Source of the DNA: a virus
Virus record (IMG/VR): IMGVR_UViG_3300028384_000657
Location: 1-64,000 of that record
DNA length: 64,000 nucleotides
Direction: 5' to 3' (one strand)
Shown: positions 2,071 through 53,094 of the stretch, piece by piece
How the letters are laid out: each line of letters starts with the position of its first letter
Numbering within the stretch: position 1 is the first letter of the stretch
Translations under genes and position numbers: made by a program
Notes under the pieces: generated by a model
Seen by the model: only the letters and a program-made list of their open reading frames with translations
Databases searched by the model: none
What the model was told of the DNA's origin: nothing

Positions 2071-3096
2071 ATGTCTGAGACCCTCAACACTGTAGATAAT
2101 ATGGAAGAAGTGAACGAAGGCTCTAACGTCGTTACCAAGAATGCAAAGCCTGGTGAAAAAATTGACACCTCTAAAGGTGGCGCTGCCAAGGTTATTGACG
2201 TTAACACCGATTCCATGGAAGGTGCAAAGGGCACCAAGAACGCTGGTGCAAGCGCATCGGGTGCTGTAAAGCACGAAGGTTCTAAATCCCTTTCAACAAA
2301 ACCTTCTGATGCATCTGCTAAGATGGAGGAAACCGATGGCGAAGAAGAAGAAACAATCACTGAAACCAAATACGACTTTAGTGAAGATGTTGACGCTCTT
2401 GTCGCTGGTGAAGACCTCTCAGAAGAATTCAGAGAGCGTGCAGTAACGATCTTTGAAGCAGCGGTCACCGCAAAAGTCAATGCTGAAACAGCTGCGTTGC
2501 AAGAGGCATTTGAATCTACTCTGACTGAAGAAGTCGAACAGATCAAAACAGAATTGGCCGAGAAAGTAGACGACTATCTCACTTATGCCGCCGAGTCCTG
2601 GATGAAGGAGAATGCTCTCCAGATCGAGCACGGCATTAAGACTGAGATGGCAGAGTCGTTCTTCTCTGGCCTCAAGTCTCTCTTTATGGAGCACAATTTT
2701 AGTGTTCCCGAAGAGAAGTTCAACCTGCTGGATGGAATGGCAGGTGAGCTTGATGAAATGGAAGCTAAACTCAACGAGCAAATCGACACCAACGTTGCAT
2801 TGAATAAGCAACTTGGTGAGTTTGTTAAAATGGAGATTGTGAACGAATGTGCCGCTGGTCTTGCAGAGACACAGAAGGAGAAGCTTGCTTCTCTGGCAGA
2901 GGGTGTTGAGTTTGAAACTGAAGAAGACTTTAGAAATAAGGTCAGTACGATTAAGGAATCATACTTCACTAGGAAGGCTGAACTTGCAGAATCTGTAAGC
3001 GACCCCACCGAAGAAGCTGCTGAACCCCTTGTCGAATCTACAGCGAGCGGCTCGATGTCGAAATACGTCGATGCATTAGCACGTTGGTCCAAATAA
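2071..3096 (+). CDS. g22: prohead scaffold protein gp22
   Basis: Acidic coiled coil, LSEEFRERAVTIFEAAV, VDDYLTY; located between g21 and g23. Confidence 0.93.
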   Translation: MSETLNTVDNMEEVNEGSNVVTKNAKPGEKIDTSKGGAAKVIDVNTDSMEGAKGTKNAGASASGAVKHEGSKSLSTKPSDASAKMEETDGEEEETITETKYDFSEDVDALVAGEDLSEEFRERAVTIFEAAVTAKVNAETAALQEAFESTLTEEVEQIKTELAEKVDDYLTYAAESWMKENALQIEHGIKTEMAESFFSGLKSLFMEHNFSVPEEKFNLLDGMAGELDEMEAKLNEQIDTNVALNKQLGEFVKMEIVNECAAGLAETQKEKLASLAEGVEFETEEDFRNKVSTIKESYFTRKAELAESVSDPTEEAAEPLVESTASGSMSKYVDALARWSK

Positions 3097-3128
3097 TTAA
3101 TTATCTACTTTAAACCTCGGAGACAACA

Positions 3129-4508
3129 ATGTCCTTACAACAACTCCAGGAGAAGTGGGCACCCGTTCTGAATCACGAAGCTCTGCCCGAGATCGAAGAT
3201 TCCCATAAGCGTGGCGTAGTCGCACAACTCCTTGAAAACCAAGAAAAAGCAATCACTGAAGAAGCTTCCGTTCTCAACGAAACTCTTCAAACCACTGGTT
3301 ATACTGGCGCATCGACCGCTACTGGTCCTGTTGCTGGTTTTGACCCCGTTCTGATCTCCCTGATCAGACGCTCCATGCCTCAACTGATCGCTTACGATAT
3401 CGCAGGCGTTCAACCGATGACTGGTCCTACTGGACTGATCTTCGCAATGCGTACTAACTATGGCGCAGAGCGTGATCCCGCAGCATCTGGCTACGATGAA
3501 GCATTCTTCAACGAGCCTAACGCTGGTTTCTCTGGTGGTGCAGGTTCTGCTTACGATCCTGGCGCATCCAGTTCTGCAAACAACGATGCTGAAGGCACTA
3601 ACCCTTCACTGCTTAACGATTCCCCCGCTGGAACCTATGAGCAAGCAGACGACGCAACTGGCATGACCACTGCAACTGTAGAAGGTCTGGACGATTCCTC
3701 TTCTAACACGGCATTCCGTGAGATGGGTTTCTCGATCGAGAAGGTTACTGTAACCGCTCGTGCTCGTGCGCTGAAGGCAGAATACAGCATCGAACTCGCA
3801 CAAGACCTGAAGGCGATTCATGGTCTGGATGCTGAGCAAGAGCTCGCTAACATTCTCAGCACTGAGATCCTCGCAGAAATCAACCGCGAAGTTGTTAGAA
3901 CCATTTACACCAACGCTGTAAAGGGTGCTCAGAACAACACTGCAAATGCAGGTATCTTCGACCTCGACGTTGACTCCAACGGTCGTTGGTCTGTTGAGAA
4001 GTTCAAGGGTCTCCTGTTCCAGATCGAAAGAGATGCTAACGCTATCGGTCAGCAAACTCGTAGAGGGAAGGGTAACATCCTGATCTGTTCTGCTGACGTT
4101 GCTTCTGCACTTGGCATGGCAGGCGTTCTGGATTACTCCCCTGCTCTGAACGGCAACAACGCTCTGACTGGCGTTGATGATACCTCCAGCACTCTGGTTG
4201 GTACTCTGAACGGTCGCATCAAGGTCTATGTTGATCCTTATTCTGCTAACGTTGCTGATAAGCACTACTACGTTGCAGGTTACAAGGGCACTTCTCCTTA
4301 TGACGCAGGTCTGTTCTACTGCCCTTACGTTCCTCTCCAGCAGGTTCGTGCAATCAACCCTGACACCTTCCAGCCCAAGATCGGATTCAAGACTCGCTAC
4401 GGCATGGTCTCGAACCCCTTCGCACAAGGTCTGACTCAAGGTTCTGGTGCTCTGACTGCAAACACCAACCGTTACTACAGACGTGTTCAGGTTGCTAACT
4501 TGATGTGA
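3129..4508 (+). CDS. g23: major capsid protein gp23
   Basis: KWAPVLNHE, GVQPMTGPTGLIFAMR, RALKAEYSIELAQDLKAIHGLDAE, FQPKIGFKTRYG. Confidence 0.99.
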   Translation: MSLQQLQEKWAPVLNHEALPEIEDSHKRGVVAQLLENQEKAITEEASVLNETLQTTGYTGASTATGPVAGFDPVLISLIRRSMPQLIAYDIAGVQPMTGPTGLIFAMRTNYGAERDPAASGYDEAFFNEPNAGFSGGAGSAYDPGASSSANNDAEGTNPSLLNDSPAGTYEQADDATGMTTATVEGLDDSSSNTAFREMGFSIEKVTVTARARALKAEYSIELAQDLKAIHGLDAEQELANILSTEILAEINREVVRTIYTNAVKGAQNNTANAGIFDLDVDSNGRWSVEKFKGLLFQIERDANAIGQQTRRGKGNILICSADVASALGMAGVLDYSPALNGNNALTGVDDTSSTLVGTLNGRIKVYVDPYSANVADKHYYVAGYKGTSPYDAGLFYCPYVPLQQVRAINPDTFQPKIGFKTRYGMVSNPFAQGLTQGSGALTANTNRYYRRVQVANLM

Positions 4509-47702: not shown

Positions 47703-49996
47703 AAGAAATTCATGTAATCAAGCGTAGTGGTGAGAAAACACCCCTAGACCTTGATAAGATCCATGCAATGGCAGAACACGCCTGTAGAGGTCTTGCAGGT
47801 GTCTCTGAGAGTCAGGTTGAGATGAATGCCAACCTGCAATTTTTTGATGGTATTAAGACTTCGGACATTCAAGAAATCTTGATCCGTTCGGCAAATGATT
47901 TGATTTCCCTGGAGTCTCCAAACTATCAGTTTGTTGCTGCTCGTCTTCTCTTGTTTAGTTTGAGAAAGGCAGTGTACAATGGTCATCCTGATGGGCACCC
48001 TCCTTTACTAGAGCATGTCAAAAAGTGTGTGGACATGGGCGTCTATGATGATGGTATTCTCAGCAAATACTCTGAGGAGGAGTGGGAGAAACTGAATAGT
48101 TTCATGGATCATGACCGAGACTATTTGTTTACATATGCTGGCATTAGACAAGTAGCAGATAAATACCTTGTACAAGATAGAAGCAGTGGCGAAGTTTACG
48201 AAACGCCCCAGTTCATGTATATGATGGTGGCAGCGACACTGTTCCAAGATGATGATAAGTTCTATCGTCTCGAATACGTCAAAAAGTATTATGACGCAAT
48301 CTCCAAACACCGACTCAACATTCCCACACCTATCATGGCAGGGGTGCGAACTCCACTTCGACAATTTGCGAGCTGTGTTCTTGTTGATGTTGATGACACC
48401 CTCGATAGCATCTTTAGTAGCGACATGGCTATTGGTCACTACGTTGCACAACGTGCTGGTATCGGCATCAACGCAGGCAGAATCAGGGGTATCAACGCTA
48501 AAATCAGGGGCGGTGAAGTTCAGCACACAGGCGTTATTCCATTTCTCAAAAAGTTTGAGGCAACTGTCAGATGCTGCACTCAAAATGGAATCCGAGGTGG
48601 ATCAGCTACTGTCCACTTTCCAATCTGGCACCAAGAAATCCAAGACATCATCGTCCTAAAGAATAATAAAGGAACTGAGGACAACCGAGTCCGTAAGTTA
48701 GACTACAGTATTCAGTTCAGTAAACTCTTCTATGAGCGATTCATCTCCAACGGTATCATCTCCCTCTTCAGTCCTCACGACGTGCCAGGTCTTTATGATG
48801 CTTTTGGTACTGATTCATTTGATAGTCTCTATGTGGACTATGAATCAGATCTCTCTATTCCAAGACAGACTATCGGCGCTCAAGAACTCATTCTTAGTCT
48901 CCTGAAGGAGAGAGCAGAGACTGGTCGTATTTACATTATGAATATTGACCACTGTAATACTCACTCGTCCTTTAAGGATAAGGTTACTATGTCTAACCTT
49001 TGTCAGGAGATTACTCTTCCGACTGATCCTATCAATCATATTGATGGGTTGGGTGAGATTGCTTTGTGTATCCTGTCTGCTATCAACGTTGGTAAACTGA
49101 AGTCTCTTGATGAACTGGATGAACTGTGTGAACTGGCAGTTCGTGGTCTGGATGCTCTGATTGACTATCAGCAATATCCTGTTAAGGCAGCAGAGAATAG
49201 CACTAAGAATCGTCGCTCTCTTGGTATTGGGTTCATTGGTCTGGCACATTATCTTGCTAAGCATGGTGCCAACTATGATTCGCAGAAGGCGCATGACCTC
49301 GTTCATAAACTCACTGAGAGGTTCCAGTTTGCTCTTCTAACAGCGTCTAATCGTATGGCAATGGAGAAGGGTCCTTGCGGTTATTTTGGTAAAACCAAAT
49401 ACGCTGATGGAATACTTCCTATCGATACATATAAGAAGGAAGTGGACGAAATTGTACCGAATGATCTTTCATGTGATTGGGAATATCTCAGGGGACGGAT
49501 TGTTGAGTACGGACTACGGCACAGCACGTTGTCCGCACAGATGCCTTCGGAGAGCAGCTCCGTTGTGTCAAACGCTACCAATGGAATCGAGCCGCCTCGC
49601 GACTACTTGTCCGTTAAGAAATCAAAGAAAGGACCTCTTAAGCAAATTGTGCCATCTTATACAACCCTCAAGGGAGCATACACCCTCCTCTGGGACATGC
49701 ACAACAACGACGGATACATCAAAGTTACCGCCGTAATGCAGAAGTTCTTTGATCAGGCAATTAGTGGTAACTGGAGTTACAATCCAGAGAATTATTCTGA
49801 TAATGAAGTGCCTGTTTCTGAGATGGCAAAAGATCTTTTGACCACTTACAAGTATGGTTGGAAGACATCTTATTATCAAAACACATATGATAATAAGAAA
49901 GACGGAGAAGAGGTTGAACAAACTCCATCCGTAGATAATTTAATTGACCAACTTATCACAGAAGAGGAAGATGACTGCGAGTCCTGTAAAATCTGA
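47699..49996 (+). CDS. nrdA: class Ia ribonucleotide reductase alpha subunit
   Basis: ATP cone VIKRSG, PTPIMAG, FASCVL, SNLCQEI, MPSESSS, C-terminal CESCKI. Confidence 0.98.
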   Translation: MKEIHVIKRSGEKTPLDLDKIHAMAEHACRGLAGVSESQVEMNANLQFFDGIKTSDIQEILIRSANDLISLESPNYQFVAARLLLFSLRKAVYNGHPDGHPPLLEHVKKCVDMGVYDDGILSKYSEEEWEKLNSFMDHDRDYLFTYAGIRQVADKYLVQDRSSGEVYETPQFMYMMVAATLFQDDDKFYRLEYVKKYYDAISKHRLNIPTPIMAGVRTPLRQFASCVLVDVDDTLDSIFSSDMAIGHYVAQRAGIGINAGRIRGINAKIRGGEVQHTGVIPFLKKFEATVRCCTQNGIRGGSATVHFPIWHQEIQDIIVLKNNKGTEDNRVRKLDYSIQFSKLFYERFISNGIISLFSPHDVPGLYDAFGTDSFDSLYVDYESDLSIPRQTIGAQELILSLLKERAETGRIYIMNIDHCNTHSSFKDKVTMSNLCQEITLPTDPINHIDGLGEIALCILSAINVGKLKSLDELDELCELAVRGLDALIDYQQYPVKAAENSTKNRRSLGIGFIGLAHYLAKHGANYDSQKAHDLVHKLTERFQFALLTASNRMAMEKGPCGYFGKTKYADGILPIDTYKKEVDEIVPNDLSCDWEYLRGRIVEYGLRHSTLSAQMPSESSSVVSNATNGIEPPRDYLSVKKSKKGPLKQIVPSYTTLKGAYTLLWDMHNNDGYIKVTAVMQKFFDQAISGNWSYNPENYSDNEVPVSEMAKDLLTTYKYGWKTSYYQNTYDNKKDGEEVEQTPSVDNLIDQLITEEEDDCESCKI

Positions 49997-51137
49997 AGTA
50001 GAAGGAATGACCGTATTTAACAAAACCAAAGTAGACACAAAAAATCAACCTATGTTCTTTGGGCAACCTCTTGGTGTCCAAAGATATGACGAATATAAGT
50101 ATCCTGTATTTGACAAATTGACCCAGCAGCAACTGGGATATTTCTGGAGACCAGAAGAAGTATCATTACAAAAGGACCGCAGTGATTACCAAACTTTATC
50201 GGAACAGCAAAGGCACATTTTTACCAGCAATCTTAAATACCAAATCATGCTGGATTCTGTACAAGGGCGCGGTCCTGGGATGGCTTTTATCCCTTACTGC
50301 TCACTCCCTGAACTAGAAGCATGTATGACAGTATGGGAATTTATGGAGATGATCCATAGTCGTTCCTATACATATATTATTAAGAATGTATATTCTAATC
50401 CTGGTGATGTCTTTGACACTATCTTGGATGATGAGAATGTAATGTCTCGTGCCTCATCAGTTACTGAATCGTATGATAGTTTCATCGAACATGCTCATCA
50501 GTATGATGGCAGCACTATGTGGGATCTTGCAAGAGAAGGTCACCAGGGTGGACAATGGGAACGCCGTGAGTTGAAGCGTAAACTCTATAGAGCAATTGCT
50601 AATGTCAATATCCTCGAAGGAATCCGTTTCTATGTGTCGTTTGCGTGCTCGTTTGCTTTTGGCGAGAATAAACTTATGGAGGGCTCGGCTAAGATTCTCT
50701 CTCTTATCGCTAGAGATGAAAGCCAACACCTGGTTATCACGCAAAATATCCTCAGAAAATGGTCAGAAGGAGACGACCCAGAAATGAAACTGATTGCTCA
50801 GGAGGAGCAATCATATGTCACTGAAATGTTTAAGCGTACTGTAGAAGAAGAGAAAGCGTGGGCTAATTATCTTTTCAGAGATGGTAGTTTGATTGGACTT
50901 AACGATCGTTTGTTGTATAACTATGTTGAGTGGATTGCAAATCGTAGGATGAAGGCAGTCGGTATCAAACCGATTTACGACATTCCTGCAAAGAACAATC
51001 CTCTTCCTTGGACTGAGCACTGGCTCAATTCTAAGGGACAACAAAACGCACCTCAGGAAACGGAGATTGAATCGTATGTCGTCGGAGGAATTAAACAAGA
51101 TGTCACAGCAGGAACCTTCGCTGGATTCTCTTTGTGA
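49971..51137 (+). CDS. nrdB: ribonucleotide reductase beta subunit
   Basis: FWRPEEV, EMIHSRSY, LEGIRFY, RDESQH, APQETE. Confidence 0.98.
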   Translation: MTASPVKSEVEGMTVFNKTKVDTKNQPMFFGQPLGVQRYDEYKYPVFDKLTQQQLGYFWRPEEVSLQKDRSDYQTLSEQQRHIFTSNLKYQIMLDSVQGRGPGMAFIPYCSLPELEACMTVWEFMEMIHSRSYTYIIKNVYSNPGDVFDTILDDENVMSRASSVTESYDSFIEHAHQYDGSTMWDLAREGHQGGQWERRELKRKLYRAIANVNILEGIRFYVSFACSFAFGENKLMEGSAKILSLIARDESQHLVITQNILRKWSEGDDPEMKLIAQEEQSYVTEMFKRTVEEEKAWANYLFRDGSLIGLNDRLLYNYVEWIANRRMKAVGIKPIYDIPAKNNPLPWTEHWLNSKGQQNAPQETEIESYVVGGIKQDVTAGTFAGFSL

Positions 51138-51444: not shown

Positions 51445-51684
51445 ACTTATACGTTCATCCAATGTTTAGTATCTTACTGGCATTGACCCTTGCCCATCAT
51501 AATGACGGGTCACCTTATGGGTGGCACATGAGTTGTGAAAGGTTTCTACAGAGAAGAGTTGAAATCCTTATGGATGACAACTTAGATCGTCGCACCAAGT
51601 ATAACCTTATTGGTTATCTTAAGTCGAAGGTAGAAGGTCAGTGTGATAGTATGCTAATCTAGGACGCAAGTAAGTCGCGGAACG
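51445..51684 (+). ncRNA. glutamine-riboswitch-like aptamer 1 (glnA/Downstream-peptide family), P2 loop containing ORF 51462-51662
   Basis: CGTTCA-TCC (51452-60) ... GGA-CGCAAGTAAGTCGCG-GAACG (51662-84); P1 CGTTC/GAACG. Confidence 0.6.
51462..51662 (+). CDS. small two-Cys protein nested in aptamer 1
   Basis: MFSILLALTLA...SCERF...GQC, 66 aa. Confidence 0.65.
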   Translation: MFSILLALTLAHHNDGSPYGWHMSCERFLQRRVEILMDDNLDRRTKYNLIGYLKSKVEGQCDSMLI

Positions 51685-51687
51685 GAG

Positions 51688-51866
51688 CGTTCATCCCATG
51701 TTTGAGTTATTACTCTATTCTAATATTGCTTGTGCTGATGCTATCGAAATGATCGAGCGTATCAGCAAACATGAGCATATGGAAGCAGCAATCAGGACAG
51801 AGCTTATTGAAGTAATTCAAGAAGCAACCCCCGAGTGTCCATGGGACGCAAACGACTGAAGGAACG
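51688..51866 (+). ncRNA. glutamine-riboswitch-like aptamer 2, P2 loop containing ORF 51698-51859
   Basis: CGTTCA-TCCCATG (51688-700) ... CATGGGA-CGCAAACGACTGAAG-GAACG (51840-66); perfect 7-bp P2. Confidence 0.68.
51698..51859 (+). CDS. small two-Cys protein nested in aptamer 2 (53 aa, not in ORF track)
   Basis: MFELLLYSNIACADAIEMIERISKHEHMEAAIRTELIEVIQEATPECPWDAND. Confidence 0.65.
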   Translation: MFELLLYSNIACADAIEMIERISKHEHMEAAIRTELIEVIQEATPECPWDAND

Positions 51867-51925
51867 GGTAACGGATCCTCCGAGAGGAGAGAAGGTTAAT
51901 CACCCTATTATTTCAGGAGTCAATT

Positions 51926-52093
51926 ATGAACACCCTCAATCTCATTAGAAAGCAGATCAATAAAGCATCTGCCCTTCACGACGCACAGATCTTTCATACC
52001 ACATACCGTGGTGTCAAGTACGATGTAAACTGTGCTGAGCAAAAGGATGCCCATGGCACCTATTGCTATCGTGGACATGTCTATATCAAGTGA
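51926..52093 (+). CDS. DUF4278-like small protein (55 aa, not in ORF track)
   Basis: AGGAG RBS; TYRGVKY and CYRGHVY repeats. Confidence 0.75.
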   Translation: MNTLNLIRKQINKASALHDAQIFHTTYRGVKYDVNCAEQKDAHGTYCYRGHVYIK

Positions 52094-52100
52094 GGTAGAC

Positions 52101-52196
52101 ATGTTAGCACTACAAACAGTCGGATTGGTGTCTGTTGGATGTGTAGCATTCATCGGCATGATCTATGGAGAACTTATCCTTTTACAAAGAGTATAA
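52101..52196 (+). CDS. 31-aa single-TM peptide
   Basis: GAGG RBS; MLALQTVGLVSVGCVAFIGMIYGELILLQRV. Confidence 0.55.
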   Translation: MLALQTVGLVSVGCVAFIGMIYGELILLQRV

Positions 52197-52208: not shown

Positions 52209-52367
52209 ATGCTGAAGGTCAGACTCGAATATGACCTTCCAGAATTTGATCCAGCGAAACACGATCCAGATAAAACGTTCGCGTTTTTAACTTATCGTGG
52301 CATACACTATGCTAAATGGGTTAATCTAAAACCCTTTGGTAGCAAATCCTGGAAGATCAAATTTTGA
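52209..52367 (+). CDS. second DUF4278-like small protein (52 aa)
   Basis: AGGAG RBS; LTYRGIHY motif. Confidence 0.62.
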   Translation: MLKVRLEYDLPEFDPAKHDPDKTFAFLTYRGIHYAKWVNLKPFGSKSWKIKF

Positions 52368-52377
52368 TTTCCACACA

Positions 52378-52401
52378 AAGGACCCAAACGGGTCCTTTTT
52401 T
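52378..52401 (+). terminator. terminator closing the nitrogen-regulated locus
   Basis: AAGGACCC-AAAC-GGGTCCTT plus T run. Confidence 0.85.
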
Positions 52402-52437
52402 GCTATCCTAAATAGGTACAACCTATACAGGAGAGTC

Positions 52438-53094
52438 ATGAAACTATTTCTGGACTGTTCTGACCCAGAACTTATTGCCTCTGCCTTCGAGACTGGTTTA
52501 ATTGATGGAGCTACTACAAACCCCAGTCTTATGCTGAAAGCGGGTAAAGACCCGATGCAAGTAATCAAAGAAATTTCCTCTATCTTCCCTTGGAATGCTT
52601 CAGTATCCGCTGAAGTTGTTGGAGATACTGCAGAGGAAATGCTTGATATGGCAGAAGATTATCTGGAGATCGGACCAAACATTACTATCAAAGTTCCCTG
52701 CACTATAGAAGGTCTAAAAGCATGTAGAGAACTTGCAGACGACGATGTACCTGTAAACGTAACACTAATTTTCAGCACGGCACAAGCATTACTAGCTGCG
52801 AAAGCGGGAGCAACATATGTTTCTCCTTTCGTTGGTCGTGTATTTGATCAACACTGGGATGGAATTCACCTTATTGAGGAGATTGCAGATGTCTTCGCTA
52901 CTCATGAACTCAAGACAGAAGTTCTTGCCGCTTCTATTAGAGAACCTGTTCAAGTCTCCGACGCTTTTAGAGTGGGAGCTGATATATGTACTCTACCGCT
53001 TCCCATCTTTTACAAACTCTATAAACATATTCTCACTGACAAGGGTTTAGAACTCTTTGATCAGGATTGGAAATCGCTTCAAGAAAAATTGTGA
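52438..53094 (+). CDS. talC: transaldolase TalC
   Basis: MKLFLD, GATTNPSL, TIKVP, VNVTLIFS, YVSPFVGR, LAASIR; late promoter at about 52408. Confidence 0.96.
   Translation: MKLFLDCSDPELIASAFETGLIDGATTNPSLMLKAGKDPMQVIKEISSIFPWNASVSAEVVGDTAEEMLDMAEDYLEIGPNITIKVPCTIEGLKACRELADDDVPVNVTLIFSTAQALLAAKAGATYVSPFVGRVFDQHWDGIHLIEEIADVFATHELKTEVLAASIREPVQVSDAFRVGADICTLPLPIFYKLYKHILTDKGLELFDQDWKSLQEKL

Follow-up and report, generated by a model that had tools for sequence, protein, structure and literature searches.

Two small genes lie within the hairpins of a putative composite glutamine riboswitch in T4-like cyanophages

The window analyzed here, a stretch of 64,000 nucleotides of viral DNA, is part of a 74-kb fragment from a T4-like cyanomyovirus. 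The region of interest is flanked by nrdB (49944-51137) on one side and by talC (52336-53094) on the other; a tRNA (54038) and, according to Rfam, a PhotoRC-II element (57919) are also present in the window. In a BLAST search, 375 cyanophage records matched the composite region. The counterparts of the two nested ORFs in phage syn9 are gp196 and gp197, and that of the following gene is gp198. The string CGTTCATCC is located at 51452-60 and 51688-96, with no further exact copies within the 64-kb window, and GGACGCAA...GGAACGG is located at 51662-85 and 51844-67. With these strings in place, the original prediction of two split glutamine-riboswitch cores, in each of which the first hairpin closes a whole ORF, was confirmed for positions 51452-51867.

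All features of the composite are encoded on the plus strand. Unit 1 opens with CGUUCA (A1, 51452-51457), which comprises the putative 5' strand of an outer P1 helix (CGUUC, 51452-56) and junction A, and is unchanged in 144 distinct composites. The adjacent UCC (51458-51460) is the 5' strand of hairpin 1 (hp1, P2 of the outer core) and pairs with 51662-64. The loop of hp1 is filled by nested gene 1 (ORF1, 51462-51662, 66 aa), which belongs to the syn9 gp196 family (phrog_6471, E 2e-38) and which ends in a UAG stop codon that shares bases with the 3' strand of the stem. In the window hp1 is weak, consisting of 3 bp followed by an A.A mismatch and a single A-U pair. The segment 51662-51672 contains the hp1 3' strand GGA, the binding-core sequence CGC (51665-67) and the E-loop half AAGUA (51668-72). 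It agrees with the RF01739 consensus segment in the alignment of L035, a compact twin whose core segments equal those of the window except for one linker base and in which tetraloops replace the ORFs. The unit ends with AGUCG (X, 51673-51677), the 5' strand of an inter-unit helix that is complementary to 51853-57 and covaries across subtypes, and with GGAACGG (B1, 51679-51685), the 3' strand of an inner helix, which is separated by a 3-nt loop from its partner 51688-92 and is paired in the minimum-energy fold.

Unit 2 begins with the second CGUUCA (A2, 51688-51693), of which CGUUC (51688-92) is the 5' strand of the inner helix. The 5' strand of hairpin 2 (hp2), UCCCAUG (51694-51700), forms a perfect 7-bp stem with 51840-46 and holds the AUG of nested gene 2; this hairpin is predicted in both the minimum-energy and the centroid structure of the window RNA. 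Nested gene 2 (ORF2, 51698-51859, 53 aa) is a member of the syn9 gp197 family (phrog_504, E 2e-23). It begins within the hp2 5' strand and reads through the hp2 3' strand, CGC and the helix strand Y; the stop codon, UGA, straddles the boundary between Y and the E-loop GAA. The 3' half of the unit (51840-51867), composed of the hp2 3' strand (51840-46), CGC (51847-49), Y (CGACU, 51853-57), the E-loop half GAAG (51858-61) and GGAACGG (B2, 51861-67), is identical to the unit-2 3' half of the compact relative L035. The leader that follows contains a small hairpin with a GNRA loop (51878-51889), an optional insert missing in most relatives, which covaries where present (CUCC/GGAG in the window, CACC/GGUG in Syn30, CAGC/GCUG in syn9). 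It leads to a gene of 55 aa with two YRG motifs (51926-52093), which is DUF4278/IF17-like and belongs to the syn9 gp198 family (phrog_545, E 6e-32).

The architecture is not peculiar to the window. A pattern scan of viral contigs yielded 74 distinct tandem unit pairs, among them 57 distinct related composites with at least one long insert. Sorted by the contents of unit 1 and unit 2, the pairs comprise 33 with a compact hairpin and an ORF, 17 with two compact hairpins, 13 with two ORFs, 8 with an ORF and a compact hairpin and 3 with a mid-size insert and an ORF. The cultured phages syn9, Syn19, S-CAM1 and Syn30 between them show all loop variants. The arrangement is kept across hundreds of related phage contigs, and at least 537 IMG/VR contig stretches encode a nested gene. 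When cellular genomes were searched, the strict split pattern gave 6 matches, and the output of the junction pattern was dominated by chance matches. Genuine composites were found there in small contigs only, the titled ones being marine MAGs or SAGs. These contigs (L126, L127, L130, L238, L276, L303 and L308) carry the phage composite and, where titled, are filed under Verrucomicrobiales, Euryarchaeota, Prochlorococcus and Dehalococcoidia; they are probably mis-binned cyanophage DNA or derive from infected cells.

The proposal that whole ORFs under coding constraint occupy the hairpin loops is borne out by several properties of these genes. BLAST links 68 of 70 nested ORFs into one set. The median dN/dS is 0.34 in the gp197 family (38 members, 482 pairs) and 0.30 in the gp196 family (17 members), and 99-100% of pairs have a value below 1. 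Across codon positions, entropy decreases in the order 3 > 1 > 2, indels are multiples of three and two cysteines are invariant. A profile-profile comparison of the gp196 and gp197 families gave an alignment that spans their entire length and in which the two cysteines coincide (probability 81%, E 1e-5); judged from these profiles, the two families are distant paralogs. AlphaFold models begin with a hydrophobic helix at the N-terminus, after which the cysteines bracket a helical hairpin (pLDDT 78); confidence is low for the tail encoded by the aptamer core. Pfam, protein atlas and PDB fold searches gave no functional lead for the nested proteins, and no clear Shine-Dalgarno sequence was found upstream of ORF1. 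In three relatives (L139, L148 and L150, at about 760-860) the gp196-family ORF has no stop before the core and continues through B1, the linker and A2, so that its stop overlaps the start of the next ORF.

The nested genes are tightly coupled to the surrounding RNA. For the gp196 family, all 67 distinct loci ascertained through the protein carry CGTTCA at most 16 nt before the ATG, and the 3' half follows the gene in 67/67. For the gp197 family, whose loci were collected with a single-protein query, CGTTCA is found in 61 of 64 protein-ascertained loci, and each of these 61 has a stem of 5 bp or longer. The ATG lies 4 nt past CGUUCA in nearly all nested genes. Unit-2 ORFs end in ...WDAND/...DAND or in ...DAKAD depending on the aptamer subtype, with these residues encoded by the core and the stop codon provided by a conserved U-R-A; unit-1 ORFs terminate within the stem or continue into the core, which is then translated as G-R-K-stop. 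One lineage of ORFs is found in both units, each time with the tail of its host unit. At the sequence level, nested start codons are thus placed in the 5' strands of the stems, and stop codons in the 3' strands or in the conserved core. For unit 2 of the window, it had been proposed that the start codon and the last codons lie within the aptamer, and both were found there: the AUG is part of the 7-bp stem 51694-700/51840-46, and W-D-A-N-D-stop is read from the hp2 3' strand and the conserved core.

The long-range stems themselves are conserved as well. When long-insert units were counted without bias, 52 of 66 reached a stem length of 5 bp or more, where less than 1% would be expected by chance. 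The mean stem length is 5.8 bp versus 4.0 and 4.6 bp with shuffled partners, and none of 5000 shuffles equalled the observed value. In homologs the hp1 stem measures 3-9 bp and covaries (UCC/GGA, UCUCAUG/..UGAGA, UCUUAUG/CAUAAGA, UCACU/AGUGA). Several pair types occur at positions 4 and 5 of the long-range stems. Residue changes from W to E and from W to I accompany changes in the 5' strands of the stems. The anticipated covariation of P2 in cyanophage homologs is therefore seen across inserts of 140-200 nt. A circular permutation built from the inter-ORF segment alone, in which the hp2 5' strand would pair with the 3' stem strand of unit 1, was also considered and was rejected as far as the hairpins are concerned, since the swapped stems average 3.0-3.5 bp compared with about 6 bp for the own partners.

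Rfam gave no match at the gathering cut-off in the window (RF01739, 35 bits; RF01704, 33 bits), and up to E 10 only noise was reported at the composite (sroH, U6atac). The expectation that covariance models miss the element was hence correct; the lack of an RF01739 match is attributed to the inserts of 139 and 201 nt. Natural compact relatives, in which a tetraloop takes the place of the ORF, were scored in place of a window trimmed in silico. Whole-pair matches to RF01739 reached 39.6-43.6 bits for five compact relatives (L035, L047, L074, L022 and L079), and single-unit matches reached 35.3-40.3 bits for L041, L006 and L049. The highest score, 43.6 bits, belongs to L035 and became 38.3 bits when a 171-nt stretch was searched again. 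Here the model aligned the compact pair as a single aptamer in the order A1, hp1, CGC-AAGUA, helix, GAAG and B2. In Syn30, unit 1 is a compact hairpin with a UUCG loop where ORF1 would be, and alone scores 26.4 bits with RF01704 (Glutamine-II) and 25.8 bits with RF01739 (Glutamine). The RF01704 cut-off of 33 bits was not reached, the best scores being 26.4 and 25.9 bits on compact relatives. The pseudoknot hairpin of RF01704 with GGAACG in its loop is not evident; the only candidate has 3 bp and overlaps the next unit.

The diagnostic features of RF01739 can be traced individually. The P1 strands CGUUC and GAACG are each present twice, and 51452-56 pairs with 51862-66 in the minimum-energy fold. 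The hairpin directly after CGUUCA covaries, with four of five pairs changing on both sides in compact forms, and its 5-bp core is kept across ORF inserts too. AAGUA (51668-72) precedes X and GAAG (51858-61) follows Y, in agreement with the E-loop motif as defined previously (PMC5393176), and a YRG/DUF4278-like ORF starts 59 nt downstream of the window composite. All core nucleotides of the type-I glutamine aptamer are accordingly present in split form: CGUUCA, the hairpin, CGC, the AAGUA...GAAG E-loop on a helix, and GGAACGG. The conserved bases also match the binding site in the type-II crystal structure, which is built from C1-C5 and A6, C17-G18-C19 and G35-G41 (PMC6698751). In cyanophage annotations such elements appear as one glnA RNA of about 99 nt (PMC9964418). 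The proposed homology to glutamine riboswitches is well supported by the compact relatives that exceed the RF01739 gathering score. In our view the leader of the DUF4278/IF17-like gene probably contains one composite glutamine riboswitch, whose hairpin loops house two real small genes. The composite would presumably bind glutamine.

The original prediction envisaged two independent, self-closing aptamers in tandem. This part is not supported, because covariation, RNAalifold and energy models favor one nested composite. In such a fold an outer type-I aptamer would be closed by pairing of 51452-56, the 5' strand of unit 1, with 51862-66, the 3' strand of unit 2. An inter-unit helix (51673-77 with 51853-57) would bear the sole E-loop, and a local hairpin (51680-84 with 51688-92) would form a second, circularly permuted core. 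This inner part contains all core bases of a second aptamer in permuted order and is closed by a loop of 3-4 nt, the length of which is conserved. Of about 150 distinct junctions, 146 are unchanged, and the other four are compensatory B1/A2 double changes: three combine GCAACG with CGUUG, and one combines GAAACG with CGUUU. A1 and the five pairing bases of B2 are unchanged in each of these variants; in L061 the G following B2 is replaced by A. The inter-unit helix, which joins the stretch following AAGUA in unit 1 to the one preceding GAAG in unit 2, shows covariation between subtypes, with length changes that are matched as well, and a second composite in L061 has a quite different inter-unit helix of 7 bp. 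Overall, 95.7% of cells are paired for the nested pairs compared with 85.5% after shuffling, and two-sided changes affect 11 pairs. Unit 1 alone carries AAGUA and unit 2 alone carries GAAG, the two strands that make up a single E-loop on a single helix in the type-I crystal construct (PMC5393176).

Structure predictions point in the same direction. RNAalifold predicts A1:B2 and B1:A2, and for the full 425-nt RNA of the window, ORFs included, the minimum-energy structure has the crosswise nested topology. Forcing the complete nested set of helices costs 0.3 kcal/mol over the minimum, versus 3.0 kcal/mol for the tandem fold. In the minimum-energy folds of 57 ORF-bearing relatives the outer helix is formed in 36 and the inner helix in 43, compared with 1-2 for the tandem helices. 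Covariation of the outer helix was not detected, since its strands are unchanged in the 144 composites. Given the near-invariance of CGUUC/GAACG, the preference for the nested over the tandem fold depends on the inter-unit helix, on the energy models and on compensatory events of which at least two are independent. The B1/A2 double changes could also be created by template switching in a DNA hairpin. Moreover, the inter-unit helix contains regular A.C and C.A mismatches in two subtypes, closure of the inner core by its C:G pair may be difficult with a loop of 3 nt, and the long-range helices would need to form against ribosome traffic. On balance, covariation and modeled energies make the nested fold fairly likely, and the two units are probably not independent tandem aptamers.

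Accordingly, we regard it as unlikely that each unit pairs its own CGUUC with its own GGAACG and closes its own ORF independently of the other. Such an arrangement would agree with the significant Rfam matches of single units and with the tandem glutamine aptamers known from other work (PMC2864571, PMC10265488), and the hairpins lie within single units under either model. However, GCAACG/CGUUG and GAAACG/CGUUU would mismatch both tandem helices, whereas the crosswise helices stay perfect. The confinement of AAGUA to unit 1 and of GAAG to unit 2, and the near absence of tandem helices from the minimum-energy folds, likewise argue against it. The tandem fold may still occur as an alternative state of the nested composite. 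Another reading would be that the inserts are untranslated spacers in which the open frames are accidental. The missing Pfam family and the missing clear Shine-Dalgarno sequence before ORF1 fit this notion, but the low dN/dS, the codon-position entropy, the in-frame indels, the invariant cysteines and the confidently modeled helical hairpins render it extremely improbable.

If the nested ORFs are genuine genes, their insertion might have broken the aptamers, the halves of which would then persist as recombination sites (cassette boundaries) or translation signals. BLAST matches to other phages indeed start and stop at the half-sites, which suggests modular exchange, and in the window hp1 is weak and Rfam finds nothing. 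Yet about 30 core bases are invariant while the median dS of the ORFs is about 1.4, the stems covary after the ORFs are in place and the full-length minimum-energy fold is the aptamer fold, so that we consider dead relics very unlikely. The ORFs could finally be passengers in a safe harbor: the loops would tolerate small or selfish genes, and the riboswitch would work despite them, with translation and sensing uncoupled. All four combinations of compact and ORF-bearing hairpins exist, endonuclease genes also reside in loops of this RNA (L061 and phage Sf-CH5) and support a passenger element in the story, and the type-II aptamer crystal construct carries an artificial tetraloop on the same stem (PMC6698751). 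Nevertheless, both small-protein families are found almost only inside the hairpins, the ATG keeps its offset of 4 nt from CGUUCA in nearly all cases, conserved aptamer bases supply the stops, and coding residues shift in favor of stem pairing, for instance from W to E. Full uncoupling of the nested genes from sensing is therefore somewhat unlikely.

The endonuclease genes are found at two different places of the composite. In L061 the second composite lies on the reverse strand at 2826-3480, downstream of the first one, and its first-unit hairpin holds an endonuclease VII-like ORF of 182 aa (L061:4100-4645:-). This ORF matches phrog_1035 in PHROGs (E 1e-17), has no Pfam match and also reads through the aptamer core. 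In phage Sf-CH5 (L211, 551-1123) a homing endonuclease gene (phrog_314) is located exactly between the units, i.e. between B1 and A2. A partial duplicate of the CGTT motif flanks the insertion, which extends the 3-nt loop to about 600 nt.

Downstream of the composite, the gene with YRG motifs scores 21.5 bits (E 3e-4) against DUF4278 (PF14105) and does not reach the cut-off of 25.3 bits; for this reason it is termed DUF4278-like only. Its YRG repeats are conserved in all relatives, and the protein starts 29-64 nt past the composite in all 72 listed relatives with enough downstream sequence. The expected position of the element ahead of a DUF4278 gene thus holds, in the form of a DUF4278-like YRG gene, for the window and these 72 relatives. 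The window leader (51868-51925) has a G run just after GGAACGG, a C-rich tract (51901-05) and an AGGAG ribosome site (51915-19). Among relatives, covariation joins the G run to the C tract in a short hairpin (GGA/UCC, GGGG/CCCU, GGGA/UCUC), which may represent the expression platform. Farther downstream in the window follow a possible hydrophobic ORF of 54 aa (52032-52196), another ORF with a YRG motif (52209-52367, phrog_6192) and a hairpin resembling a terminator (52377-98); together with the YRG gene they look like one small operon.

Upstream, at least 45 of 70 relatives have a sigma-70-type promoter (TTGACT, about 17 nt, TATAAT), the end of which precedes the first CGUUCA by 6-8 nt, for example at 8295-8337 in L035. 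With this spacing the RNA would start at the aptamer, and the predicted riboswitch would be placed at the extreme 5' end of an early transcript. The clade of the window does not have this promoter. In the window, the T4-type late-promoter-like sequence TATAAATA is present at 51406-13, followed by GTA-N8-TAC at 51430-43, which corresponds to the NtcA-site consensus and is also a hairpin-forming palindrome. In L001, L003 and L057 from the same clade the GTA-N8-TAC spacing is retained and the inner eight bases vary.

Glutamine riboswitches of the hosts are ON switches that activate DUF4278/IF17 genes upon glutamine binding (PMC6212724, PMC6698751). By analogy, and in line with the regulatory logic of the original prediction, the folded state of the phage element would hide the nested starts and open the downstream gene. 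Glutamine would stabilize the nested fold, which would bury both nested start codons and turn on the downstream gene as in the host riboswitches. Conversely, ribosomes translating either of the nested genes would melt the stems and mask the core, and those terminating on ORF1 or ORF2 would occupy core strands. Folding of the RNA and translation of the nested genes would then be mutually exclusive. We tentatively propose a two-site glutamine sensor, an aptamer inside an aptamer with a naturally circularly permuted inner core, that could work as a translational toggle. At high glutamine the RNA would be folded, with both nested starts hidden and the downstream IF17-like gene open; at low glutamine ribosomes on the nested genes would dismantle the sensor. 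This mechanism is possible, and we hold it with considerably less confidence than the architecture itself.

Compared with known systems, the element is closest to type I (glnA RNA, RF01739), with which it shares the P1 strands CGUUC/GAACG, the hairpin right after CGUUCA, the AAGUA/GAAG E-loop on the next helix, the location upstream of a DUF4278/IF17-like gene and the gathering score reached by compact phage relatives. It differs in that both hairpins hold whole genes, leaving the window invisible to the model, in that a second, permuted core replaces the loop of the E-loop helix, and in the third junction base, a C that pairs with the G after GGAACG as in type II. With Glutamine-II (Downstream-peptide motif, RF01704), which is known in marine picocyanobacteria, it has in common CGUUCA, a hairpin, CGC and GGAACGG, including the C19:G41-type pair, as well as the position upstream of DUF4278 genes; here, however, matches stay below the cut-off (26 versus 33 bits) and the pseudoknot hairpin is not evident. 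Tandem glycine riboswitches also contain two ligand-binding cores in mutual contact within one leader, a possible route to a sharper response, but have another fold and ligand, and neither a permuted core nor genes inside. Group I introns with endonuclease genes in their loops, common in T4-like phages, are structured RNAs as well, whose long-range helices must close around ORFs, and endonuclease genes sit in the loops of some relatives here. In contrast to these introns, the present RNA is a putative ligand-sensing leader and no ribozyme, nothing is spliced out of it, and its nested genes mostly encode small two-cysteine proteins found almost only at this site. Leader-peptide attenuators and the mgtA/mgtL leader likewise contain a leader ORF whose translation alters the RNA fold; these are short sensor ORFs without product function, and they are located in expression platforms, not in aptamer hairpin loops.

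Glutamine riboswitches and their tandem copies in cyanophages have been described before (PMC2864571, PMC9964418, PMC9602691, PMC10265488). For genes inside an aptamer and for the nested permuted fold no description was found in the searchable literature; a mention elsewhere is possible. Riboswitch aptamers are usually taken to be compact non-coding leaders, and search models assume so. Here a well-studied aptamer class tolerates coding inserts of 140-530 nt in its hairpins and shares start codons, stop codons and even C-terminal residues with the nested genes. Since covariance models are blind to the ORF-bearing forms, other riboswitch classes may hide similar instances. If the nested permuted two-core fold is correct, it would revise the reading of 'tandem' glutamine aptamers. 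The element is a widespread and concrete system in which the interplay of translation and ligand sensing on a single RNA can be studied, and, by way of IF17-like proteins, it connects the control that phages exert over host nitrogen metabolism with a family of two-cysteine microproteins. Should the proposed toggle exist, the sensor would read both glutamine and translation activity during infection.
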